A DNA stretch of 64,000 nt from Candidatus Zhuqueibacterota bacterium (GCA_049322915.1 JBMOPW010000014.1:1-64000); one strand, 5' to 3'. Positions 1-59,627 are shown, counted from the stretch's first letter. Numbers and translations: made by a program. Notes: generated by a model from the sequence alone, not told the origin.

Positions 1-139
1 AAAATTTAAGCCCAAATTGCAAAACGCTTGACTCTAATTTGCAGGCTTTTTATATTAACGCTAAACCACCTGTGCAGGTGGGGAATATGTTTGCCCCGCT
101 AGTGGGGAATATGATTGCCCTTGACATTATCTCAAAATT

Positions 140-510
140 TTGTATATATATTCTAAATATAATATAAAGAAAATAAAAAATAGTTATAGTTATAGTAGTG
201 TTGATAAGCTGATTAATTATGAAAATCTCTTTATATCTCATATAAAAATTTTATCATAGAAATATACTTGTCATGTGAATAACTTCTACTTTTTTGTTGA
301 CTCGTTGTTTACAATTTATTAATTCATTCACGAAGTATTTTGACTTTTAGAATTTGATTCGAAAACACGGTTTTATTCACTTCGGTTAATATAGATTTCG
401 ATAGATATGTGGGTAATTTGTGAATAGCTACGACTGATATATGTTTATGTAGAAAAATGTGGTTAACATCCTTTATTAATCGTTGGTAGATATAAAGGAT
501 GTTGATAAGG
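140..510. other. oriC: oriC sub-region downstream of dnaA (DnaA boxes plus AT-rich unwinding element)
   Basis: Non-coding and very AT-rich. DnaA-box-like 9-mers: TGTTGATAA 199-207 and 500-508, TGTGAATAA 274-282, TGTGGGTAA 408-416, TGTGAATAG 419-427, TGTGGTTAA 458-466. A/T tract at about 140-180. Confidence 0.8.
181..207. promoter_or_regulatory. DnaA-trio array adjacent to a DnaA box
   Basis: TAG TTA TAG TTA TAG TAG (181-198) directly abuts TGTTGATAA (199-207), as in the basal unwinding system described for Bacillus subtilis oriC. Confidence 0.7.
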
Positions 511-51327: not shown

Positions 51328-53940
51328 TCACTGAAAGAAGATCGGTGCAAAGCCCGTGAAATTCCGGTCGAAAGAAGCTTTCGGGCGGGAGAGATTTTCA
51401 AAAAGCAACGACGCTGAATAGCTGTAGGAAATGAGATAGTCAGACATCAGAAAGGAAAGCGTCCGATAGTCTTCAGTCTGCGGCGCTGGCGGCTGAGCTA
51501 ACAATGTCTCAAAGGGAAGATAACCCAACAGGCCATCCGGGATAATAATGAGGCGATGGCCGTACAGGTATGATTTTACGGGCGAGATTAAACAACAATA
51601 AAGCGTATGAGCGGCTATGCTGTAATCAGTAAAACTTTGTTGCAGTAATCCACTTCGCATTCGGTCCATTGATGCGGTGAAGCTATCATCGATGGAAATT
51701 GACCGTATTTCGAATGTAGTTTTGGTGATTGTAAAAATGAACAGCGTGCTATCGCTGAGGTAATACTCGATGATTCCTGTGTCTGAATCCAGTATCTTGT
51801 CCTGAATTTGTTTTGCGGTGGCGTTGGCGGTTTGATATGTTAAATTGTAATAGGCAGGGTAGTTCAGTTCGAAGGTATTGACAAGGCTTTCATAGTTTCG
51901 TTTTAACTGAAATAGCCTGTTTTGCAGTGACCTCACTCTTTCGCTATCTGCATCGGTTCCCTTTTGTGTTTCATCAAACAGGAGCTTGTCCGTGAATGAA
52001 AGATCGATTTTCAACTGTCGTTCAGTGTCCAGAAGGCTATCCGGGATGCCGGCGAATTTCCTGGCGTTGGATTCGATGAGCGCCTGATGCAGCGCGCCGG
52101 ACTTACTTTTCTCGGCAAAGGAGAATGCAACTTCTTTCAAGTCGTGCGCATGGGTGATGGTGTACAGCTCAAACACACTGGTAATTGCCTGACCGTAGAT
52201 GGAATGCATTTTTTCGCCCAGGAATAATTTCAAATTCTCTGATTTATAGCCGGTTCGAATGTGTTCAATGAGATCGGAAATTAAGGTGTACGTTACAACG
52301 GATGCCTCCAGATTTTCGATATGACTTCTGTCGTCCAAATATAATTCATTGAACAGCTCCGCTTTTCGGGTCAGGATATCCAGCAGTCTGGTCTCCTCGT
52401 TGAGCTGTGTGAGAGGAGGATTGACATAAACATTGTCGGAATCGAACCCTGGAAAAAGCGCGTGCAAGGCGCGTTGCAAACAGGATAGCGCTTTCCTGAT
52501 CCGATGTTGTCGGTGATAGACTTCAGCGATTTGCTGATACGCTTCTGCAATGAGCGGATGATTGTTGCCCCAGATACGTTGACTCAGGCTCACGGACTTA
52601 TTGAGATAATGAAGCGCTATGTTAAAATCGCCCAGATCTGTATAGAGAATTCCCATATTGTTGTAAATAATTGCCATGAGTGAATGCTGCTGTGTTGAAA
52701 GCTGCCTGGCCATGGAGAGCGCCTGCCTGTAATACTCAATCGCCCGATTAAAATCCTTTTTCAGCGAATAAATATTTGCAATGTTGAGCTGGCAGCGGAC
52801 AATATCCGGGTGAACCCGTTGCTCCATGCGCAGTTGCACGTTAAGGGATTGCTGGTAGTAATGAAGCGCCTCATCGTACATCTCCTTGTTTTTAGAGATT
52901 ATTCCCAGGTTGTTGTACAACGATGCAATTATCGGATGGGTGTCGCTAATCGTCACCATCACCAGCGATAACGATTTCTGAAAGTAAGCCTGCGCGTCTT
53001 CGAGGTTGCCTTTTCGGAGCCAGATAGTACCCAGATTCAGGTAATTTCCAGCCAGCGATGGGTGATTGCTGCCAAGTCTGTTCTGCACAATGCGGATGGA
53101 TTTTTCATAGCACTCAATGGCGCGGTCATAATCCCCTTTGGTGAAATGAAGCACGCCTAGGTTGAGGTAGCTGTTGGATACGTCCGGGTGGTTCTCCCCG
53201 ACTGCCTCCAGCCGGATGGCAAGTCCCTTTTGATAATAGGCCATCGCATTCTCGAAATCCTCTCTGGCAAGTGCGAGAATACCTAAATTGACATAACTGT
53301 CAGCGACCAAAGGGTGCGTCTGTTCATAGACTTTTTTTCGGATGGCTAATGCATCTTCATAAAATTCAGCAGCCTTGTCATACTGACCATAAAAATAGTT
53401 GACAATGCCCAGTCCGTGATAGCTATTCGCCAATTCTTCATCGTGGGCAGAATCGGTTTTTTTCAGTAGGCAAATTGCCTCGTGAAAAGCGCTTTCAGCC
53501 GCGGCTAAATCACCGCGCTTCTGAAAAATTATGCCGCGGGCGTTGAGGATTTTTACAGCCGGAATTTCATTCGTCGAAGTGAAAAGGGCGAGAATATGGG
53601 ATGCGCTGTCCACCTGGCTTTTTGCATCTTCATAGCGGCCCGATTTCACGAAGTTTGTGCTCTTGCCGCAGAGGCAATCGATTGCTTTTTCCCATTGCTC
53701 CTCTCGGATAAGTTGGTATAAAGCCAGATCATAATAATAATTAGAACTGTCGTAGAAGGCGGCGGTATGCAGCTTAGCCGCTCGCTGTAAACATTCAACC
53801 GCGGTAATCACGTCAACCCGGGTCTGATGCGACTGAAGCATCGGTACGTTTCTTTGATTTTTTATAGAATAGACGAGTCCACTGGCAAGAATGACGGTGA
53901 GCAAAATAGCAGTATATTTCCTGTAGTGTGGCTTTTTCAT
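51328..53940 (-). CDS. membrane-anchored TPR protein carrying only the N-terminal, non-catalytic part of a CHAT domain
   Basis: N-terminal TM; about 9-10 42-aa TPRs (HPxxAxSYxNLG); AFSFAEKSKS, IIEYY, LIIIPDGLLGYLPFETL and ISYSYSAS motifs; ends at FTGFAPIFFQ with no His/Cys dyad. Confidence 0.88.
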   Translation of the reverse strand: MKKPHYRKYTAILLTVILASGLVYSIKNQRNVPMLQSHQTRVDVITAVECLQRAAKLHTAAFYDSSNYYYDLALYQLIREEQWEKAIDCLCGKSTNFVKSGRYEDAKSQVDSASHILALFTSTNEIPAVKILNARGIIFQKRGDLAAAESAFHEAICLLKKTDSAHDEELANSYHGLGIVNYFYGQYDKAAEFYEDALAIRKKVYEQTHPLVADSYVNLGILALAREDFENAMAYYQKGLAIRLEAVGENHPDVSNSYLNLGVLHFTKGDYDRAIECYEKSIRIVQNRLGSNHPSLAGNYLNLGTIWLRKGNLEDAQAYFQKSLSLVMVTISDTHPIIASLYNNLGIISKNKEMYDEALHYYQQSLNVQLRMEQRVHPDIVRCQLNIANIYSLKKDFNRAIEYYRQALSMARQLSTQQHSLMAIIYNNMGILYTDLGDFNIALHYLNKSVSLSQRIWGNNHPLIAEAYQQIAEVYHRQHRIRKALSCLQRALHALFPGFDSDNVYVNPPLTQLNEETRLLDILTRKAELFNELYLDDRSHIENLEASVVTYTLISDLIEHIRTGYKSENLKLFLGEKMHSIYGQAITSVFELYTITHAHDLKEVAFSFAEKSKSGALHQALIESNARKFAGIPDSLLDTERQLKIDLSFTDKLLFDETQKGTDADSERVRSLQNRLFQLKRNYESLVNTFELNYPAYYNLTYQTANATAKQIQDKILDSDTGIIEYYLSDSTLFIFTITKTTFEIRSISIDDSFTASMDRMRSGLLQQSFTDYSIAAHTLYCCLISPVKSYLYGHRLIIIPDGLLGYLPFETLLAQPPAPQTEDYRTLSFLMSDYLISYSYSASLLFENLSRPKASFDRNFTGFAPIFFQ

Positions 53941-53941
53941 A

Positions 53942-54751
53942 TCATTCCACTGTGTGCGTGCGAAATTTTTTGATCAGCAGGAAGGCTGAAATGATGATGA
54001 GGACAATGGCTGGAATAATCCATTGCCAGTGATGACGCGCTGTACTGAGTTCCAGGGGAGATGTATCGCCGGTCAGGACAAAGCCAGCCCAGTAGTAGGG
54101 CGCTGATTTGATCTCTCCGGCATGGCGAAGATAGTTCAGTTTTGCGGTGCGAAGAGCAGCATCTTTGCTGGAACCCCGAATGAGTTCGGCATAGAAATCG
54201 GCCATGATGTGAGAAGTTGATTTGTCATCGACCGGCCACAAGCTCATCGCGATGCTCGGGCACCCTGCGTACATGAAGCTTCGCGCCAGGCTCATGATGC
54301 CTTCTCCCTGGACAAGTTTGCCGCTGCCGGTGTTGCATGCGCTTAAAACAGCCAAATGCGCGTTGAGTTCCAGATTGTAAAGCTCATAAGCGAACAGCTT
54401 ACCGTCCTCGGATAATGTGTCTTTCGGCGAGAAGGCTAAATAGCTGTACATCGGTTGAAGTTCATTGATAATCGTATGCGTTGCGAGATGGAGGATGCGC
54501 GACTTCGGGGCGTATTTCTTAAAATTCGCTTCGGTGGCCTGACGGCGCAGGAATACGTCTCCGCGAAGCAGATTGTCGATATTGCTCACCTCTTGTTCTG
54601 TCCAGGTCAAATCGTGAAGAGTTGCCTGGAGAGGCTCGGACAAAGGTTGATGAAAGGAGAGTTGCTCCTGAGCGAATAGCGAGTAATTTCCGGCAAAGAT
54701 CATTGCCAGAGCCAGCGCGAGCAGGCGCGTGTTAATCATTGGCATTTGCAC
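53942..54751 (-). CDS. exported catalytic C-terminal half of a CHAT (caspase-like) protease with C-terminal TM anchor
   Basis: Signal peptide (SLFA/Q); TEQEV, ATEANFK, LHLATH (His), VLSACNTG (Cys), SLWPVDD and PYYWAGF motifs; TM WIIPAIVLIIISAFLLI-KK. Confidence 0.9.
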   Translation of the reverse strand: MQMPMINTRLLALALAMIFAGNYSLFAQEQLSFHQPLSEPLQATLHDLTWTEQEVSNIDNLLRGDVFLRRQATEANFKKYAPKSRILHLATHTIINELQPMYSYLAFSPKDTLSEDGKLFAYELYNLELNAHLAVLSACNTGSGKLVQGEGIMSLARSFMYAGCPSIAMSLWPVDDKSTSHIMADFYAELIRGSSKDAALRTAKLNYLRHAGEIKSAPYYWAGFVLTGDTSPLELSTARHHWQWIIPAIVLIIISAFLLIKKFRTHTVE

Positions 54752-54888
54752 ACGAAGTAATGAAAATTCATAAGTGGGTCATTTCAGAAAAATGCTCACC
54801 GCGAGTCGATCTTGCGGCATCTGGAAGGAAACTGAATGTTAAACGCCCTGAAAAATTGAATTGTTTCTCACCCGAATGATGGTCCCGG

Positions 54889-55662
54889 CTATCGCTTTGT
54901 AAGGAGGTTCAAAATTTGTTCGCTCTGCTTTCTGTATTTGCTTGCCGCAGATACTGATTGAAATACCGCCATTGCCTCTGGAATTCGTTCCAGCCTTACC
55001 AGCGCCAGCCCCTGGTACCATTGCGCAGGATCGCGGTAGGGAGAACTGTGGGTTTTCATAATAGCCTCGAAGTGAGGAAGCGCCAGTTGTGGTGTGTCGT
55101 TGATTAGCTGGCACATCCCGGCATAAAAATGGGCGCCGGCGTTTCCTGGCTCGTGCGCTAATAGCTGATCCAATAATTGCTGGCAGGCGGCAATCTGATC
55201 TTTTTCATAGTTCAACATCGCCTGCAAGAAGAGACCCTGACTGGACTCTCCCCTGACGATCGGCGTGATATTCGGGTAAGCCTCGAAAAACTGATTGAAA
55301 ATTCGTTGGTGTGTCTGGTTTGTTTTTAGCAGAAGAAAAGAAGTCGCCAGAGCAACGATAACAAGCGCTGCCATTCCGTACCGCAGCATTGGGTTGCGCC
55401 AGCCTGATTTGGTGCGGCTGAGCCGTTGAGAGACCGAAGTCTGGAGGGCAGCTATGGCAGTGCGGAACTGTAACTCCCCGGCGCTTTTCTGAAATCCCTC
55501 GATGGCATCAGCGCAAAATGGGCAGTGGCGGATATGCAAGTCAATTTTCTCTTTCTGCTCAGGCCGAATGTTGTGTCTTGAATATGAAATGAGTTCATTC
55601 AGCGACAGACAATCCCCAACCGTGGACGCTTTGTCCTCGCAAGTAACATTTTTTTCATTCAT
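54889..55662 (-). CDS. zinc-finger (ZAS) transmembrane anti-sigma factor with periplasmic TPR domain
   Basis: CLS...HIRHCPFC (HxxxCxxC), one TM, then TPR-like repeats (AHFYAGM, AQWYQGLA); overlaps the ECF stop codon by 8 nt. Confidence 0.85.
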   Translation of the reverse strand: MNEKNVTCEDKASTVGDCLSLNELISYSRHNIRPEQKEKIDLHIRHCPFCADAIEGFQKSAGELQFRTAIAALQTSVSQRLSRTKSGWRNPMLRYGMAALVIVALATSFLLLKTNQTHQRIFNQFFEAYPNITPIVRGESSQGLFLQAMLNYEKDQIAACQQLLDQLLAHEPGNAGAHFYAGMCQLINDTPQLALPHFEAIMKTHSSPYRDPAQWYQGLALVRLERIPEAMAVFQSVSAASKYRKQSEQILNLLTKR

Positions 55663-56254
55663 CTTTTCGGAATTCCCTATCTTGAAGTAAAATATTCTTT
55701 AGGTTCCGCCTTCCATTCTGGATATGACTCTTCACTTTCCCGACCTCAAATCCGGTCGTGTCAGCGATATCCCTGTATGATTTCTTTTCGAAATAAAAAA
55801 GCAAGAGGCATTGGCGCTGCGCTTCAGTCAGTTGATTTAATGCGGCATGTACTTTCGATTCGATATCGCTTTGACCACTATTAAGAGTATCAAAGTCTTC
55901 AAATTCCATAAAAATATTTTTAAATTTTTCAGTTTTTTTCTGCTGAATATTTTCCTTCGTTTTATTTTTTCGAAGGTTATAGAGGCAAAAATTTTTTGTA
56001 ATTGAATACAACCAGCTACTAAAATTGGTCACCGGTTGTATTTTCAGCTTGGTCATGACTTTTTCGAAGATTTCCAGAACCGCATCCTTGCTGTCTTCCT
56101 CATTCCCGAAATATTTCAGGCAGGCGCCATAAACAAGGTGACAATAGCGCTGAAACAGCTCTTCAAAAGCAGCAATATCGCCGTGATCCCTGAACATCTG
56201 AACCAGTTCACGATCAGTTTTTTTCGTCATGAAATTTTTAAAATAGAATCGCAC
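55655..56254 (-). CDS. ECF RNA polymerase sigma factor
   Basis: Region 2 (AFEELFQRY...DSKDAVLEIF...FSSWLYSITKN) and region 4 (SYRDIADTTG...VKSHIQNGRRNLK). Confidence 0.95.
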   Translation of the reverse strand: MRFYFKNFMTKKTDRELVQMFRDHGDIAAFEELFQRYCHLVYGACLKYFGNEEDSKDAVLEIFEKVMTKLKIQPVTNFSSWLYSITKNFCLYNLRKNKTKENIQQKKTEKFKNIFMEFEDFDTLNSGQSDIESKVHAALNQLTEAQRQCLLLFYFEKKSYRDIADTTGFEVGKVKSHIQNGRRNLKNILLQDREFRKDE

Positions 56255-56447: not shown

Positions 56448-59400
56448 ATGTCACAAAAATGCTTTCATTTTTTGCTGGCAGCCTGTCTGCTGTTCCCGAT
56501 AGATGGCTACGGATTTGATAAGCAGGCGAAAACAAAAGCATCATCCACGCTGATAAAGCGTGATTCAGCCGTGATTGACGCCAACCAAATTTCAATGGTG
56601 GTGATGAACAATGGTACATTTGGCCGCGATCCGATGTCAGGAAGCGGAGCATTTTTCTTTCCAAAAGGAACGGATAAAAAATTACTCTATACGGCAGGAA
56701 TAGAAATCGCCGGAAAAGTGAACGGAGACATTCGAACTGCCTGCGCAAATTATAATGTCGAATTTCAGCCAGGAAAAATTTTATCGACCGGAGTGGCAGA
56801 CGATCCTGATTTGGAGAAATATCGAATTTACAAAATCAAACCGGGCGATTCCGCAGATCCGGCAAGTCCGAATTATAACATCGATTATGCCGAGTGGCCT
56901 GTCGAGGATGGCGCGCCGGTGGACGCGTCGGGAAGTCCGCTTATCCTCGGCGACCAGACGATGTGGCTCGTCATGAATGATGCAAATGAAAGCCTTCACT
57001 CCGGCTGCTATAACACAGAGCCGTTCAACCTTGAATTGCAGTTGCTGGTCTGGGCGTTCGACGATGAATCGACTGCAATGGGTAAAACTGTTTTTATGCA
57101 ATACACGCTGATCAATAAAAGCCAGAATTCTATCGAAGATGCCTATGTCGGGATTTGGTCTGACGCAGATGTGGGCGACTCCTTTGATGACGCCCTTGCC
57201 TGCGATACCACGCTGGATTTGACCTATGCCTACAATGGAGATGATAGCGATATGATGTACGGGACTGATATCCCGGCTGTTGGGATATGTTTGCTGCAAG
57301 GCCCTGCTGTGCCTTCCATCGGCGAAACAGCATTTCAATTTTTGCATATTCCAGTTTTGAACGCGCGGAATTTAAACATGACCTCAACCAGCGTCTATTA
57401 CTGAGCGCACGAACGATTCAGGGATCCTGAATATACGAGTCGCGGTGCGATTCAATTGTATGGCAATTTTGAAGGATTGGATTTTTTAGGCGATCCAACA
57501 GTCGATTTGTCTACTGGAGAGAATTCTCCTTTTATGAACAGCGGGAATCCTGTTTTTAATACCGGCTGGCTGCAGGACCTCTATATGAAGCCGTGCGATT
57601 TATATTTCCTGCAGGGCAGCGGTCCATTCTCACTCGCGCCTTTGGATACGCAGCGCGTTGTTTACGCAATCATTGTTGGTCATGGAGAAACACGACTGGA
57701 GAGCGTACTGGAATTGAAGCGCAATACAAATTTTATCAGGGATGTCTTTCGCAATGAATTTCAGATGAAAGCCTGGACAGAAACCGAGGTGCGCGTACCC
57801 TCCCAATCCAGGATGGAAATGGCGATTCGGTCAAAGGTGGAAACTGAGGTTGGTACTCAGTCCATTCAGGCGGATTTGCTCACGTACAGCGATTCCCTCG
57901 TCCGAACCATTGATCTGTACGACGATGGGACCCATGGCGATGCTCTAGCCAGCGATTATATTTTTAGCCATGCGCTGACGCTTGATGCGTTGCACCAGGC
58001 GCTTTACATCAACCTTCGAATCAAAGCCGTAAGCGGGAAAGAATATTCTTTCTTGCACGCTGCTGAAGACATCGCTGCGATTTATCCCGATGTTTTTATC
58101 TCTGAAATTGATGTGGCTGCGGATCATTTGAACAATGATGGAAAAATCAACCCCGGCGAGAATGTCCGATTATGCTTCCAGATTAAAAATGAACTGCCTT
58201 TTCCCATCACGTCATTGAATGTGCTGGTGCTACTGGATACGGCTCTTGTACAGGGCAATCCGGAGCATTTCTTTTTTAAGAATGTCGGGATGAATGAATT
58301 TGCGGAGATGGACTATGATCCAAATGACGAGTCGAGCTTTTATGAATTGGATGTCTCTCCGAATTTCCTGGCAGAAAATCCGTCAAATGACAGGATTGAT
58401 TTGAATGTCAAGTTCTATGTCAATGAACATCATATCTGGGATCAGAAATTCACCGTCTCATTGTCGGTTCAACCGCTGGAGCATATTCCCAATCTGGTAA
58501 TCCCTGCCCATATTTCCGGCTATAGCAGCGCCACGTTTGAAATCAGCGTCATCGATCCTGATCAGCTTACCGGGCATACCTATGCAATTACTGTGAGTGA
58601 TTCCATCAATGAGAACGGCGATCCGGGCTTCAATCTCATCGATCAAACATTGGGAGATACTTTGCTCAAACGTCACGAATTGCCGGACACCTATGCCTAC
58701 AATATTCCTATCACAGATGGATTTAAAGTGACCAGAGCCGTTCTGCCCGAAGTAGAACTCAGCGGGCATTTCGAGTCTTATTCCGGAGATGATTTGCGGC
58801 CATTTTATGGGATTAGCTACGACGCCAGTCTGTCGCCATCGATGGTGACATTCGGCGACGCGATCCCTGAACATTATTGCCCGGTGGAAATCGAATTCAC
58901 CAATCGCGTTGATTCCAGCGGTGTGGTTGGCGCTCTGCTTGGCCAGAGTGGATTTCAGCACACGGTATCTCCGCTGCACGGCATAGTCGGATTTTTCCCC
59001 TGTGGAATCAATGTCTGGAAAATTGTCAATAATCAAAGAGCCGGACGGTTGAACATCATCTTCCAGGAAGAATCGCCGTCGCTGCCAGCCTACGATGAAA
59101 CCTGGACTCCCGGCGAATGGCTTTATATCATGGCCAGCAATTACGATGCAACCGGGCAATTGTATCTGGGATTGACGGAAATTCCAATGGGCAGTCTGCT
59201 TTATAAAATGAATCTTTCTTTGAGAAGAGCGGAAAGCGCCGCCGGCATCGGGGATAAATTATATTTTGAACGTTGCTTTCTACCCACAGTTGACGATATG
59301 TGGTTATTCTCTCCCACAAACATTCTGGATGATGGGAATCGGCTTCCGACGCGATTTGAGTTGTACCAGAATTACCCCAATCCATTCAATCCCACGACCA

Positions 59401-59627
59401 CAATTCGATTTTCGATTCCGAAGCAATCACAGGTCAGTTTGAGAGTTTACAACATCCTGGGACAGGAGGTCGCGGACCTGTTCAATCGTATTGCTGGGCC
59501 CGGCGACTATGCTGTGAACTGGAATGGAAAAGATCGGTTCGGGCGGTCAGTTGTTTCAGGTATTTATTTTGCCAGATTTGAGACAAGTGCCGGGACGAGG
59601 TTGATAAAAATGGCGTTGATTCGATAG
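56448..59627 (+). CDS. secreted protein with T9SS/FlgD-type C-terminal domain; single 1059-codon frame interrupted by an in-frame TGA at 57402-57404 (recoded or pseudogene)
   Basis: ORFs 56448-57404 and 57456-59627 are in the same frame with only TGA between them. Homology to 59654-62875 runs across the stop. Signal peptide, GGAGGAG RBS, choice-of-anchor-X-like LYDDGTHGD, and C-terminal QNYPNPFNP. Confidence 0.8.
57402..57449 (+). other. in-frame UGA plus candidate bacterial SECIS element
   Basis: TGA, 11 nt, then ATTCAGG-GAT-CCTGAAT (57416-57432); lower stem CGCAC (57406-57410) with GTGCG (57445-57449). Confidence 0.45.

Follow-up and report, generated by a model that had tools for sequence, protein, structure and literature searches.

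The window analysed here is a 64,000-nucleotide stretch of DNA from Candidatus Zhuqueibacterota bacterium (GCA_049322915.1, JBMOPW010000014.1:1-64000). On its minus strand lies an operon that begins with an ECF sigma factor gene, followed by genes for an anti-sigma factor, a 269-aa protein with a His/Cys dyad, and an 870-aa tetratricopeptide repeat (TPR) protein, the last two of which each encode part of a CHAT protease domain (Table 1). The neighbours between 50455 and 59627 are the sigma factor, anti-sigma, acyltransferase, and T9SS cargo genes. No defence island was seen beside the locus, the PADLOC matches there being to generic TPRs only.

Table 1. Features of the split CHAT locus, in window coordinates.
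Feature	Residues	Nucleotides	Strand	Basis
ECF sigma factor gene (199 aa), first gene of the operon		55655..56254	minus	Pfam, NCBIfam
Anti-sigma factor gene (257 aa)		54889..55662	minus	Direct reading, six-sequence alignment
Promoter-like motif GAAAC-N17-CGTTTAA (weak, genus-specific)		54839..54867	minus	Lies in the 137-nt spacer before the catalytic-half gene
CHAT C-half gene (269 aa)		54751..53942	minus	ORF reading
Signal peptide-like segment, ending SLFA before QE	1-27	54751..54671	minus	Hydropathy and direct reading
His88 (LHLATH)	88	54490..54488	minus	Sequence reading
His92 (LHLATH)	92	54478..54476	minus	Sequence reading
Cys139 (SACNTG)	139	54337..54335	minus	Sequence reading
C-terminal TM helix of the catalytic half	244-263	54022..53963	minus	Hydropathy
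TPR and CHAT N-part gene (870 aa)		53940..51328	minus	ORF reading
Basic N-terminus and signal-anchor helix	about 10-26	53913..53863	minus	Hydropathy
TPR array, then helical linker (870-aa protein)	about 100-500		minus	
CHAT N-part, ending FTGFAPIFFQ	776-870	51615..51331	minus	Pfam and reading

Residues 42-229 of the 269-aa protein correspond to positions 97-289 of the 289-position Pfam profile PF12770 (E 4.3e-50, 171.2 bits, cut-off 24), and residues 776-849 of the 870-aa protein to positions 3-69 of the same profile (E 1e-5, 25.6 bits, cut-off 24). On the profile the matched stretches adjoin each other without overlap, and they are encoded in reversed order, with the C-part gene upstream and the N-part gene downstream. 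The junction reads TGA-T-ATG, a 1-nt spacer, with the downstream gene in another frame. A contiguous single-chain CHAT domain in N-to-C order is thus not what the locus encodes: there are two chains in reversed order, an order that the fused relatives described below also have. The original prediction of a CHAT domain divided into complementary halves, the first ending the TPR protein and the second carrying the His/Cys dyad and a C-terminal TM helix, with an export or anchor signal of its own on each half, is borne out in these respects. The whole genome holds one orphan CHAT C-part and one orphan CHAT N-part, both at this locus; the other six of its eight CHAT matches fall in five ORFs with a whole or nearly whole CHAT in the normal order.

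The topology of both halves was assigned from hydropathy and the positive-inside rule. The C-terminal TM helix of the catalytic half is followed by a basic tail (KKFRTHTVE) that is cytoplasmic by the predicted topology. In a protein collection record (P0001), the catalytic half begins at the ATG at 54739 and is therefore 265 aa long. His88/His92 and Cys139 are invariant in alignment A2, and the dyad motifs are kept in 58/58 permuted rows, so the permuted CHAT protease is predicted to be active. No NCBIfam family was found for the 269-aa protein, and a profile of the catalytic half had 0 matches to PDB sequences at E ≤ 0.01. The 870-aa protein matches Pfam TPR_12 at E 2e-85. Across 17 sequences, seven residues of its CHAT N-part do not vary (P801, G806, F810, E811, G863, P866, and F869), and the chains of its permuted relatives all end within a few residues of GFAPxxF.

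The predicted complex of the two halves scored ipSAE values of 0.82, 0.81, and 0.84, compared with 0.00 for the best control; 116 of 157 solved complexes reach the ipSAE mark, as do 2 of 215 mismatches, and the score of this complex may be helped by likeness to solved CHAT folds. The partner pLDDT was at least 75, the runs shared at least 89% of contacts, and the modelled interface comprises about 250 contacts. Residues 836-841 of the TPR half pair as a strand with 225-231 of the catalytic half, and 862-866 with 86-89. The models support the completion of one fold by the two halves, and provide the heterodimer interface that the original prediction had proposed to look for. In an AF2 model of G010, a fused relative, both CHAT parts are confident; a Foldseek search of that model against the PDB returned TPR proteins only and was silent on the CHAT part. 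Since the profile search of PDB sequences was empty and the fold search found TPR proteins only, the tie to solved CHAT folds runs through Pfam alone. Modelled by itself with AF2, the 269-aa protein reached a pLDDT of 50.5, too poor for a fold search. This conflicts with the ESM Atlas model of the 265-aa protein alone (pTM 0.70, pLDDT 0.72), and the notion that the catalytic half cannot fold alone was therefore dropped.

The two-gene arrangement recurs in relatives. A sister species (G001) has intact genes for 262-aa and 850-aa proteins in the same operon, 38 nt apart and in another relative frame, with the catalytic residues kept; the catalytic halves are 61% identical and the TPR halves 53% identical over 807 aa. 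Programmed frameshifting to a fused protein was rejected, as the window genome (G000) and G001 differ in spacer (1 versus 38 nt) and frame and share no slippery context. The L213 locus has an adjacent split pair with a 1-nt spacer, and in L071, a Bacteroidota MAG, the halves are convergent on opposite strands. Two further half pairs are matched by contigs that are equally long (P0002/P0242 and P0006/P0244). The partner half was found wherever flanking DNA suffices, namely in these two pairs, G000, G001, L071, and L213. The contig scans of genomes and metagenomes covered the best 80 of at least 587 matches each, mostly canonical genes, and provide examples rather than a census. Some split rows lie on short contigs and are possibly cut fused genes; one such row (P0023) was removed. 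Among the clusters with a signal peptide and CHAT C-part, 12/37 have no TM helix and are predicted to be soluble in the periplasm. A search with the tail of the 870-aa protein found six tail-only proteins among 115 new rows, the completeness of two (P0249 and P0289) being doubtful.

Permuted forms also exist as single chains, in G010 (1125 aa), G005 (1132 aa), G011, G060, L069 (the same as G077), L145, and L146; such fused permuted proteins make up 16 of the 120 best rows of a protein search. Their layout is signal peptide, CHAT C-part, TM helix, basic loop, TM helix, TPR, and CHAT N-part; two hydrophobic segments and a loop bearing Lys or Arg with neither Asp nor Glu were found in 21/21 fused forms. 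Part-specific HMMs place the CHAT C-part before the tail in the fused permuted proteins and after it in the canonical ones. Relatives thus occur in both orders, as in circular permutants, by HMM order, the shared fold being a modelled one. In the permuted proteins, the break follows the third CHAT strand and lies in the loop between GFAPxxF and L-x-W-x-E-x-E. Reversed order is the hallmark of the whole permuted clade, single chains with a TM hairpin included, and is not special to this locus. The same split and order, which the original prediction had proposed to look for in related genomes, was found in G001 and L213, with fused permuted chains in addition.

The tree of the CHAT C-part holds 57 permuted rows and 40 canonical ones, the canonical set being hand-picked (44 of more than 200 available). 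A single branch parts the two groups (UFBoot 100, SH-aLRT 98) and is present in 100% of 200 bootstrap trees. As judged from these sequences, the permuted clade is of one origin. Its sister group consists of canonical proteins that begin with a signal peptide and have a TM helix at the C-terminus. The split clade of the window comprises six clusters at 90% identity, with support of 100/95. Because G001 keeps both genes intact and six clusters belong to the split clade, the two-gene split is supported as an evolved and conserved state and not a local break, in agreement with the original prediction of an evolved two-subunit protease. The Fitch root state of the permuted clade is split, followed by three fusions, with weak support (55-86) at the deep nodes behind this order; a split ancestral to the fused forms is mildly favoured. 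Tandem arrays of canonical genes were found at 14 loci.

The 199-aa sigma factor matches Pfam Sigma70_r2 (E 1.2e-10) and Sigma70_r4_2 (E 6.2e-14), and scores 89 bits with NCBIfam sigma70-ECF, for which the cut-off is 42.9. An ECF sigma gene is found at the equivalent position in G001, G010, G005, L071, and L213. The anti-sigma factor was read directly (HIRHCPFCADAIEG; MLRYGMAALVIVALATSFLLL) and consists of an N-terminal ZAS-like H-x3-C-x2-C, one TM helix, a juxtamembrane motif, and TPR; in the six-sequence alignment, the conserved juxtamembrane motif is Y-P-N-(I/T)-x-P-(I/L)-x-R-G. It matches TPR_16 weakly (E 1.9e-6) and the NCBIfam family 'anti-sigma factor' below its cut-off (E 3.5e-4). An HMM of this anti-sigma family finds a match directly before the permuted CHAT gene in L069, L145, and L044, but before only 3 of 85 assessable canonical CHAT genes. 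Sigma and anti-sigma genes together lie directly upstream of the permuted CHAT gene at 9/10 assessable loci (G000, G001, G010, G005, G060, L069, L071, L145, and L213), the pair being absent upstream in G011.

The promoter-like block before the protease genes is conserved between G000 and G001. GAAAC-N17-CGTTTAA, which we take to resemble ECF-type promoters, has one exact match in the 64-kb window, and two with one mismatch against 0.54 expected. At the other permuted loci, the genes directly adjoin one another and the motif is absent. As a regulon marker, GAAAC-N17-CGTWTAA was rejected, since it occurs only before the G000 and G001 protease genes and at two unrelated loci. The motif would agree with a protease that is controlled by the sigma factor no less than with one that triggers it.

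We consider it likely that the pair encodes, in two-gene form, a circularly permuted TPR-CHAT (caspase-fold) cysteine protease that is anchored in the inner membrane and faces the periplasm. The canonical ancestor type runs signal peptide, TPR, CHAT, C-terminal TM; in the permuted order, the His/Cys part and the old C-terminal TM come first with their own signal peptide, and the TPRs and first three CHAT strands second, behind a signal anchor. Tandem copies of a canonical gene probably lost complementary parts, with later fusion in some lineages. Both halves would be exported and, once in the periplasm, would jointly form a single beta-sheet, 1:1 and constitutively; the 1-nt spacer points to 1:1 synthesis and probable translational coupling. 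The TPRs would control the active site in the manner of other TPR-CHAT proteases. Since nearly all permuted loci have the protease behind an ECF sigma and a single-pass ZAS anti-sigma, the predicted substrate is most likely the periplasmic part of the anti-sigma factor. The conserved YPNTxPLxRG just outside the membrane is a candidate cut site, at which a site-1-like cut could be followed by intramembrane proteolysis and release of the sigma factor. We put forward more tentatively, and with clearly less confidence than the two-gene permuted protease itself, the combined proposal that the permutation ran through a two-gene stage (tandem copies, complementary loss, and three re-fusions) and that the heterodimer is a dedicated site-1 protease that cuts the anti-sigma factor at YPNTxPLxRG and releases the ECF sigma.

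An error in the assembly, or a chimera, could in principle have created the junction, as the genome was assembled in metagenome fashion, in 45 contigs, and no independent sequencing run bridges 53942/53940 (the small-share runs X2-X4 contain short pieces only, and no RNA run with the locus is listed). We give this almost no weight, because the arrangement recurs in G001, L213, and the P0002/P0242 contig, the GC content is even across the region, and an independent assembler returned an identical stretch (0 differences over 53300-54950 in a Logan contig of 14,159 nt at depth 84, from a run that is a possible source of the genome). Slightly more attention is due to a recent break, by which a fused permuted gene on the way to decay would have acquired a stop or frameshift in its cytoplasmic loop. 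Fused permuted genes exist in sister genera, and the window junction falls exactly in the inter-TM loop with the frame shifted by one base. The original argument that a simple frameshift cannot explain the arrangement therefore holds against the canonical order and fails against the fused permuted relatives, in which a stop or frameshift in the loop could give the split. Such a break is nevertheless very improbable, as the G001 split persists at its level of divergence with a different spacer and frame and with intact ORFs and catalytic residues, the split clade is well supported, each half has its own start codon, and by parsimony the clade is split at its root.

Other alternatives accept the split and question the assembly. 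The 269-aa protein might be a self-sufficient minimal protease, the N-part on the TPR protein being vestigial, as the fairly confident Atlas model of the 265-aa protein and the numerous short signal-peptide and CHAT-C proteins, most with no partner gene seen, would allow. We judge this improbable given the strong conservation of the N-part and the chain end fixed at GFAPxxF, the presence of the partner wherever flanking DNA suffices, and a complex model that passes its controls; the poor AF2 model of the catalytic half alone also speaks against self-sufficiency, but it conflicts with the Atlas model, and neither decides. Somewhat less improbable, though still unlikely, is that the anchored halves remain separate, and the protease without activity, before the binding of a ligand to the TPRs joins them. 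Separate genes and anchors are consistent with signal-gated assembly, as are the opposite strands of the L071 halves, which would be expressed separately, and the CHAT-C clusters that have no TM helix and would be soluble in the periplasm. We disfavour it, since at least three fusions have joined the halves through a very short hairpin loop, a permanent tether that is evidently tolerated; in addition, the modelled interface closely extends one beta-sheet over its many contacts, as is typical of obligate and not of conditional association, and the 1-nt spacer suggests coupled, equimolar synthesis.

The proposed permuted protease can be set beside several known proteins. The sister group of the permuted clade, canonical proteins of the layout signal peptide-TPR-CHAT-TM from Bacteroidota and their relatives (among them the loci L067 of Prolixibacter, L078 of Splendidivirga, and L072 of Catalinimonas), share its domains, export signal, and C-terminal TM helix, with CHAT C-parts 44-53% identical, but are single chains in N-to-C order and rarely follow the anti-sigma family (3/85). 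Csx29, of the type III-E CRISPR craspase, is likewise a CHAT protease under TPR control, with a sigma/anti-sigma-like pair at the end of its pathway; it is a cytoplasmic single chain of canonical order, bound to Cas7-11. The latter traits are absent here, where both halves have export or anchor signals and Cas7-11 is not among the neighbours between 50455 and 59627, and the comparison drawn in the original prediction shrinks to a remote analogy. In the caspase p20/p10 pair, a caspase-fold active site is likewise built from two polypeptides, which arise when a single precursor is cleaved behind the Cys-bearing strand; here there are separate genes, and the break precedes the His-bearing strand. 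A precedent for natural circular permutation in a thiol peptidase is provided by the circularly permuted transglutaminase-like peptidases (PMC8195603); they differ in fold, are each encoded by one unsplit gene, and lack the hairpin in the membrane.

Among studied systems, DdvA of Myxococcus xanthus comes nearest, an anti-sigma factor with a periplasmic TPR-CHAT that is proposed to cleave itself (PMC11506125). The CHAT is proposed there to make the site-1 cut that starts intramembrane proteolysis, CHAT-dependent cleavage being only a proposal for DdvA as well (PMC11506125). Shared with DdvA/DdvS are the ECF sigma factor with a single-pass ZAS-type anti-sigma and a periplasmic TPR-CHAT with a His-Cys dyad (PMC11506125); at our locus, the ECF sigma gene lies beside that of a single-pass anti-sigma with an N-terminal HxxxCxxC, for which zinc binding is predicted. 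The TPR-CHAT of DdvA is the C-terminal part of the anti-sigma factor, in canonical order (PMC11506125), whereas the window anti-sigma is 257 aa long with a short TPR part, and the TPR-CHAT resides in two further genes, each with a membrane anchor, as a separate, permuted protease. From gene order and analogy, we infer that the pair may be a separate-protein analogue of DdvA/DdvS. In the openly accessible literature searched, extracytoplasmic function was linked to the CHAT domain for DdvA/DdvS and craspase, and no description of a permuted or split CHAT was found; the rearranged family is apparently undescribed so far.

Its members are currently annotated as 'CHAT domain-containing protein' or 'tetratricopeptide repeat protein', and the catalytic halves are easily mistaken for fragments. 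The family represents a natural circular permutation with the break inside the catalytic domain, and the canonical, two-gene, and re-fused forms are all extant, so that the route of permutation through duplication, complementary loss, and fusion is open to study on real sequences. A naturally split caspase-fold protease also lends itself to studying the requirements of a CHAT domain for folding and action. With protease and anti-sigma factor as separate proteins, the idea developed for DdvA, that CHAT makes the site-1 cut, becomes testable with enzyme and substrate apart.

The last two of four consecutive genes in the window encode the parts of a CHAT protease domain in reverse order. The 269-aa protein (the catalytic half) aligns through residues 42-229 to positions 97-289 of the 289-position Pfam CHAT profile (E 4.3e-50), and the 870-aa protein (the TPR half) aligns through residues 776-849 to positions 3-69 (E 1e-5, 25.6 bits with a cut-off of 24), its remainder being TPR according to Pfam; the original prediction had expected such complementary coverage. 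The catalytic half begins with a signal-peptide-like segment (...NYSLFA/QE...), possesses His88/His92 and Cys139, and terminates in a hydrophobic helix followed by a basic tail. The TPR half starts with MKKPHYRKY and a single hydrophobic helix and ends at FTGFAPIFFQ. The ORFs are in different frames, separated by one base (TGA-T-ATG), and wherever it could be checked the earlier description of the locus (gene order, gap, signals, His and Cys residues) was right. This pair comprises the sole orphan CHAT C-part and the sole orphan N-part of the genome (45 contigs, 6.25 Mb), the other six of eight CHAT matches being found in five ORFs with the domain in normal order. All results on the permuted protease, whether split between two genes or fused in one chain, are computational. 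On the same contig beyond the window, a pair of CHAT matches lies in a 2829-aa open frame (noted also for loci L001 and L007). Most relatives searched have frames of 2750-2880 aa with this match, and the product appears to be a giant, conserved double-CHAT protein.

Coordinates of the permuted protease genes, their neighbours and related features
Feature	Position	Strand	Description
ECF sigma factor	56254..55655	minus	199 aa, first of four consecutive genes
Anti-sigma factor	55662..54889	minus	257 aa, second of four consecutive genes
Anti-sigma juxtamembrane motif	about 55270-55310	minus	anti-sigma aa about 121-134
GAAAC-N17-CGTTTAA promoter-like motif	54839-54867	minus	137-nt spacer, anti-sigma to catalytic-half gene
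Catalytic-half ORF	54751..53942	minus	269 aa
TPR-half ORF	53940..51328	minus	870 aa
Gene without family	56448-57404	plus	318 aa, divergent from sigma operon
Gene with T9SS C-terminal sorting domain	57456-59627	plus	723 aa, divergent from sigma operon
Open frame with two CHAT matches	G000:C14:93461-96670		2829 aa
L071 catalytic half	L071:5956-6741	plus	
L071 TPR half	L071:7073-9532	minus	819 aa, TM-TPR-CHAT N-part, end ...GFSPSNFK
L213 catalytic half	L213:3387-4139		TM-less

The split could be a recent break of one gene, or the halves could be joined by programmed frameshifting. The sister species (G001), whose genome is the only other one of the genus, has the same split in the same order, as the search of related genomes had been intended to reveal, in an operon of sigma factor, anti-sigma factor, 262-aa catalytic half, 38-nt spacer and 850-aa TPR half. 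Neither half-ORF is interrupted there and the catalytic residues are retained; compared with the window, the catalytic half is 61% identical (251 aa aligned) and the TPR half 53% identical (807 aa aligned). The divergently transcribed neighbour genes are also present. Spacer length and relative frame are not the same in the two species, which argues against both a recent break and programmed frameshifting.

The reversal is a trait of the family. Three further genera of this family have single proteins as their best relatives, with the CHAT parts likewise reversed: 1125 aa in G010, 1132 aa in G005, and in G011 a gene interrupted at a contig end, with the remainder on another contig. The fused chains comprise a signal peptide, the CHAT C-part with His and Cys (residues 33-225 in G010 by Pfam), a hydrophobic helix, a short basic loop, another hydrophobic helix, the TPR array, a helical linker and the CHAT N-part, terminating at GFAPVxF. 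H83, H87 and C135 are invariant in an end-to-end alignment of sixteen fused proteins. All 21 fused forms examined have two hydrophobic segments and a loop with K/R and without D/E, which by the positive-inside rule predicts a membrane hairpin with a cytoplasmic loop, so that the TPRs and the two parts of CHAT would face outward. The boundary between the two genes of the window coincides exactly with this hairpin loop.

Among 167 species genomes of the phylum, with the four best candidates scored per genome (unpublished genomes G158 and G162 being counted in these tallies only), the permuted form was found in seven: split in the window's genome (G000) and G001, and fused in G010, G005, G011, G060 and G077, the last containing the L069 contig. 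With the queries used, the other nine genomes of the window's family had canonical genes only and no permuted form. In the protein collection, the 120 best rows for the G010 query were 16 fused permuted, 102 canonical and 2 cut. Among the 120 best short relatives of the 269-aa protein, 37 clusters have an M start, a signal-peptide-like segment and the CHAT C-part only, with a C-terminal helix in 25 and none in 12; 13 of the 37 come from contigs 6.9-367 kb long and are therefore not cut by contig ends. A further 38 rows have the C-part without such a start, many resembling pieces of canonical genes, and 45 are short proteins with both parts in canonical order, probably cut canonical genes. A query with the tail of the 870-aa protein recovered the TPR-half partner of G001, together with P0242 (partner of P0002) and P0244 (partner of P0006), each pair on equal-sized contigs.

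The matches listed from two DNA scans are mostly canonical Bacteroidota genes; among them, L069, L145 and L146 are fused permuted, and L213 is an adjacent split, also with a 1-nt spacer, whose catalytic half has no TM. TM-less catalytic halves (P0011, P0012, P0014-P0017, P0022, P0025, P0028, P0031, P0032, P0047 and that of L213) are mostly about 237-250 aa, with a signal peptide and no C-terminal TM scored, and would be predicted soluble periplasmic subunits. That the halves are independent genes is clearest at L071, a further locus from these scans in an uncultured Bacteroidota MAG, where sigma factor, anti-sigma factor and catalytic half are on one strand and the TPR-half gene is opposite and convergent, so the halves must work as separate proteins.

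A phylogenetic tree was constructed from 191 columns of the CHAT C-part, including split proteins (36 C-part-only clusters, the window and L071), fused proteins (16 clusters, G005, G011, G060 and L069) and 44 hand-picked canonical relatives, among them the most similar from the DNA scan. In a quick tree of 102 rows, one branch sets all permuted rows apart (SH-aLRT 95). A careful tree of 97 rows, leaving out the long-branch canonical L001, L002, L004 and L028 and the likely cut fused gene P0023, separates 57 permuted from 40 canonical rows by a single branch (UFBoot 100, SH-aLRT 98), present in 100% of 200 bootstrap trees. Within the permuted clade, Fitch parsimony reconstructs a split state at the root and a fusion on three occasions: in L069, in P0140 with G060, and in a 17-row clade including G010, G005 and G011. 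That last clade has the window's split group of 7 rows as its sister (86/91). Deep nodes of the clade have support of only 55-86, so a split that came first, with fusions later, is our preference rather than a result.

The sister canonical proteins, of Prolixibacter and relatives, have an N-terminal signal peptide, a C-terminal TM and a basic tail. Canonical signal peptide-TPR-CHAT-TM genes often form arrays of two or three copies in Bacteroidota genomes, and among the matches listed they are head-to-tail at no fewer than 14 loci (L041, L045, L046, L054, L084, L093, L096, L103, L112, L116, L133, L142, L156 and L178). Such arrays are the raw material required by a route of duplication and complementary loss. 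We infer that the first tandem copy may have dropped everything between signal peptide and CHAT C-part, and the second its CHAT C-part and TM, which would yield the window-type pair with an export signal on each product; if the stop separating the genes were then lost, the hairpin proteins would result.

The interface between the halves that the original prediction anticipated is recovered in complex modeling. With TPR-protein residues 500-870 and catalytic-half residues 29-238, each with a separate alignment, ipSAE was 0.82, 0.81 and 0.84, versus 0.00 for the best of three controls. Among solved complexes 116 of 157 attained the mark of the two halves, compared with 2 of 215 mismatched pairs. 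Partner pLDDT is at least 75, and at least 89% of contacts are common to the runs. The contacts of lowest error join strand 836-841 to 225-231 and strand 862-866 to 86-89, the latter pairing just ahead of His88, so that in the model one sheet continues across both chains. The prediction supports binding of the two halves to each other, and may owe part of its score to resemblance with solved CHAT folds. An AF2 model of the fused G010 protein (pLDDT 78.7, pTM 0.58) has both CHAT parts confident, and its PDB fold matches are dominated by TPR proteins. Ligand-induced assembly of the halves, as first suggested, is less likely, because a few-residue loop has tethered them three times in evolution by the Fitch reconstruction; association is probably constitutive, and by analogy with other TPR-CHAT proteases control probably resides in the TPRs and the substrate.

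Sigma and anti-sigma genes are directly upstream of the permuted protease at 9 of 10 assessable loci (G000, G001, G010, G005, G060, L069, L071, L145 and L213); L146, with no upstream DNA, is outside the ten. An anti-sigma family HMM trained on six of the permuted loci matched L069, L145 and L044 beyond the training set, while only 3 of the 85 canonical CHAT genes that could be assessed have a match upstream. The anti-sigma factor has an H-x3-C-x2-C motif and a single TM; its best-conserved outer stretch, (F/Y)xxxYPN(I/T)xP(I/L)xRG, is ~15 residues beyond the membrane, before a TPR, and is retained in 6/6 aligned homologs from three distant lineages, making it a candidate cleavage or docking site. 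GAAAC-N17-CGTTTAA, which presumably resembles ECF-type promoters, is conserved in G001, has a single exact match within the 64-kb window and is absent at the other permuted loci. Standing ahead of the protease genes in this genus, it would place the protease among the outputs of the sigma factor; that fits with feedback and is no proof of a trigger role. The divergent 318-aa and 723-aa genes are likewise candidates for sigma output. They accompany the permuted protease in G001, at 81% and 70% identity, and in G010, at 57% and 39%, and metagenome locus L145 has a weaker match to the pair.

The one studied parallel is Myxococcus DdvA, a ZAS anti-sigma factor with its own periplasmic TPR-CHAT domain, proposed to cut its own juxtamembrane linker and lead to RseP-dependent DdvS release (PMC11506125). 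In DdvA the TPR-CHAT is within the anti-sigma factor itself, whereas in the window the protease consists of proteins separate from it. The literature searched, covering few subscription journals, yielded no account of a CHAT domain that is permuted or split; CHAT, TPR, ECF sigma/anti-sigma factors and the DdvA idea are already known, and what appears new is the architecture. From the upstream sigma/anti-sigma genes and the DdvA parallel, and with the promoter-like motif and the lack of such a pair upstream in G011 weighing against or complicating the idea, we propose that the heterodimeric protease would cut the neighboring anti-sigma factor.
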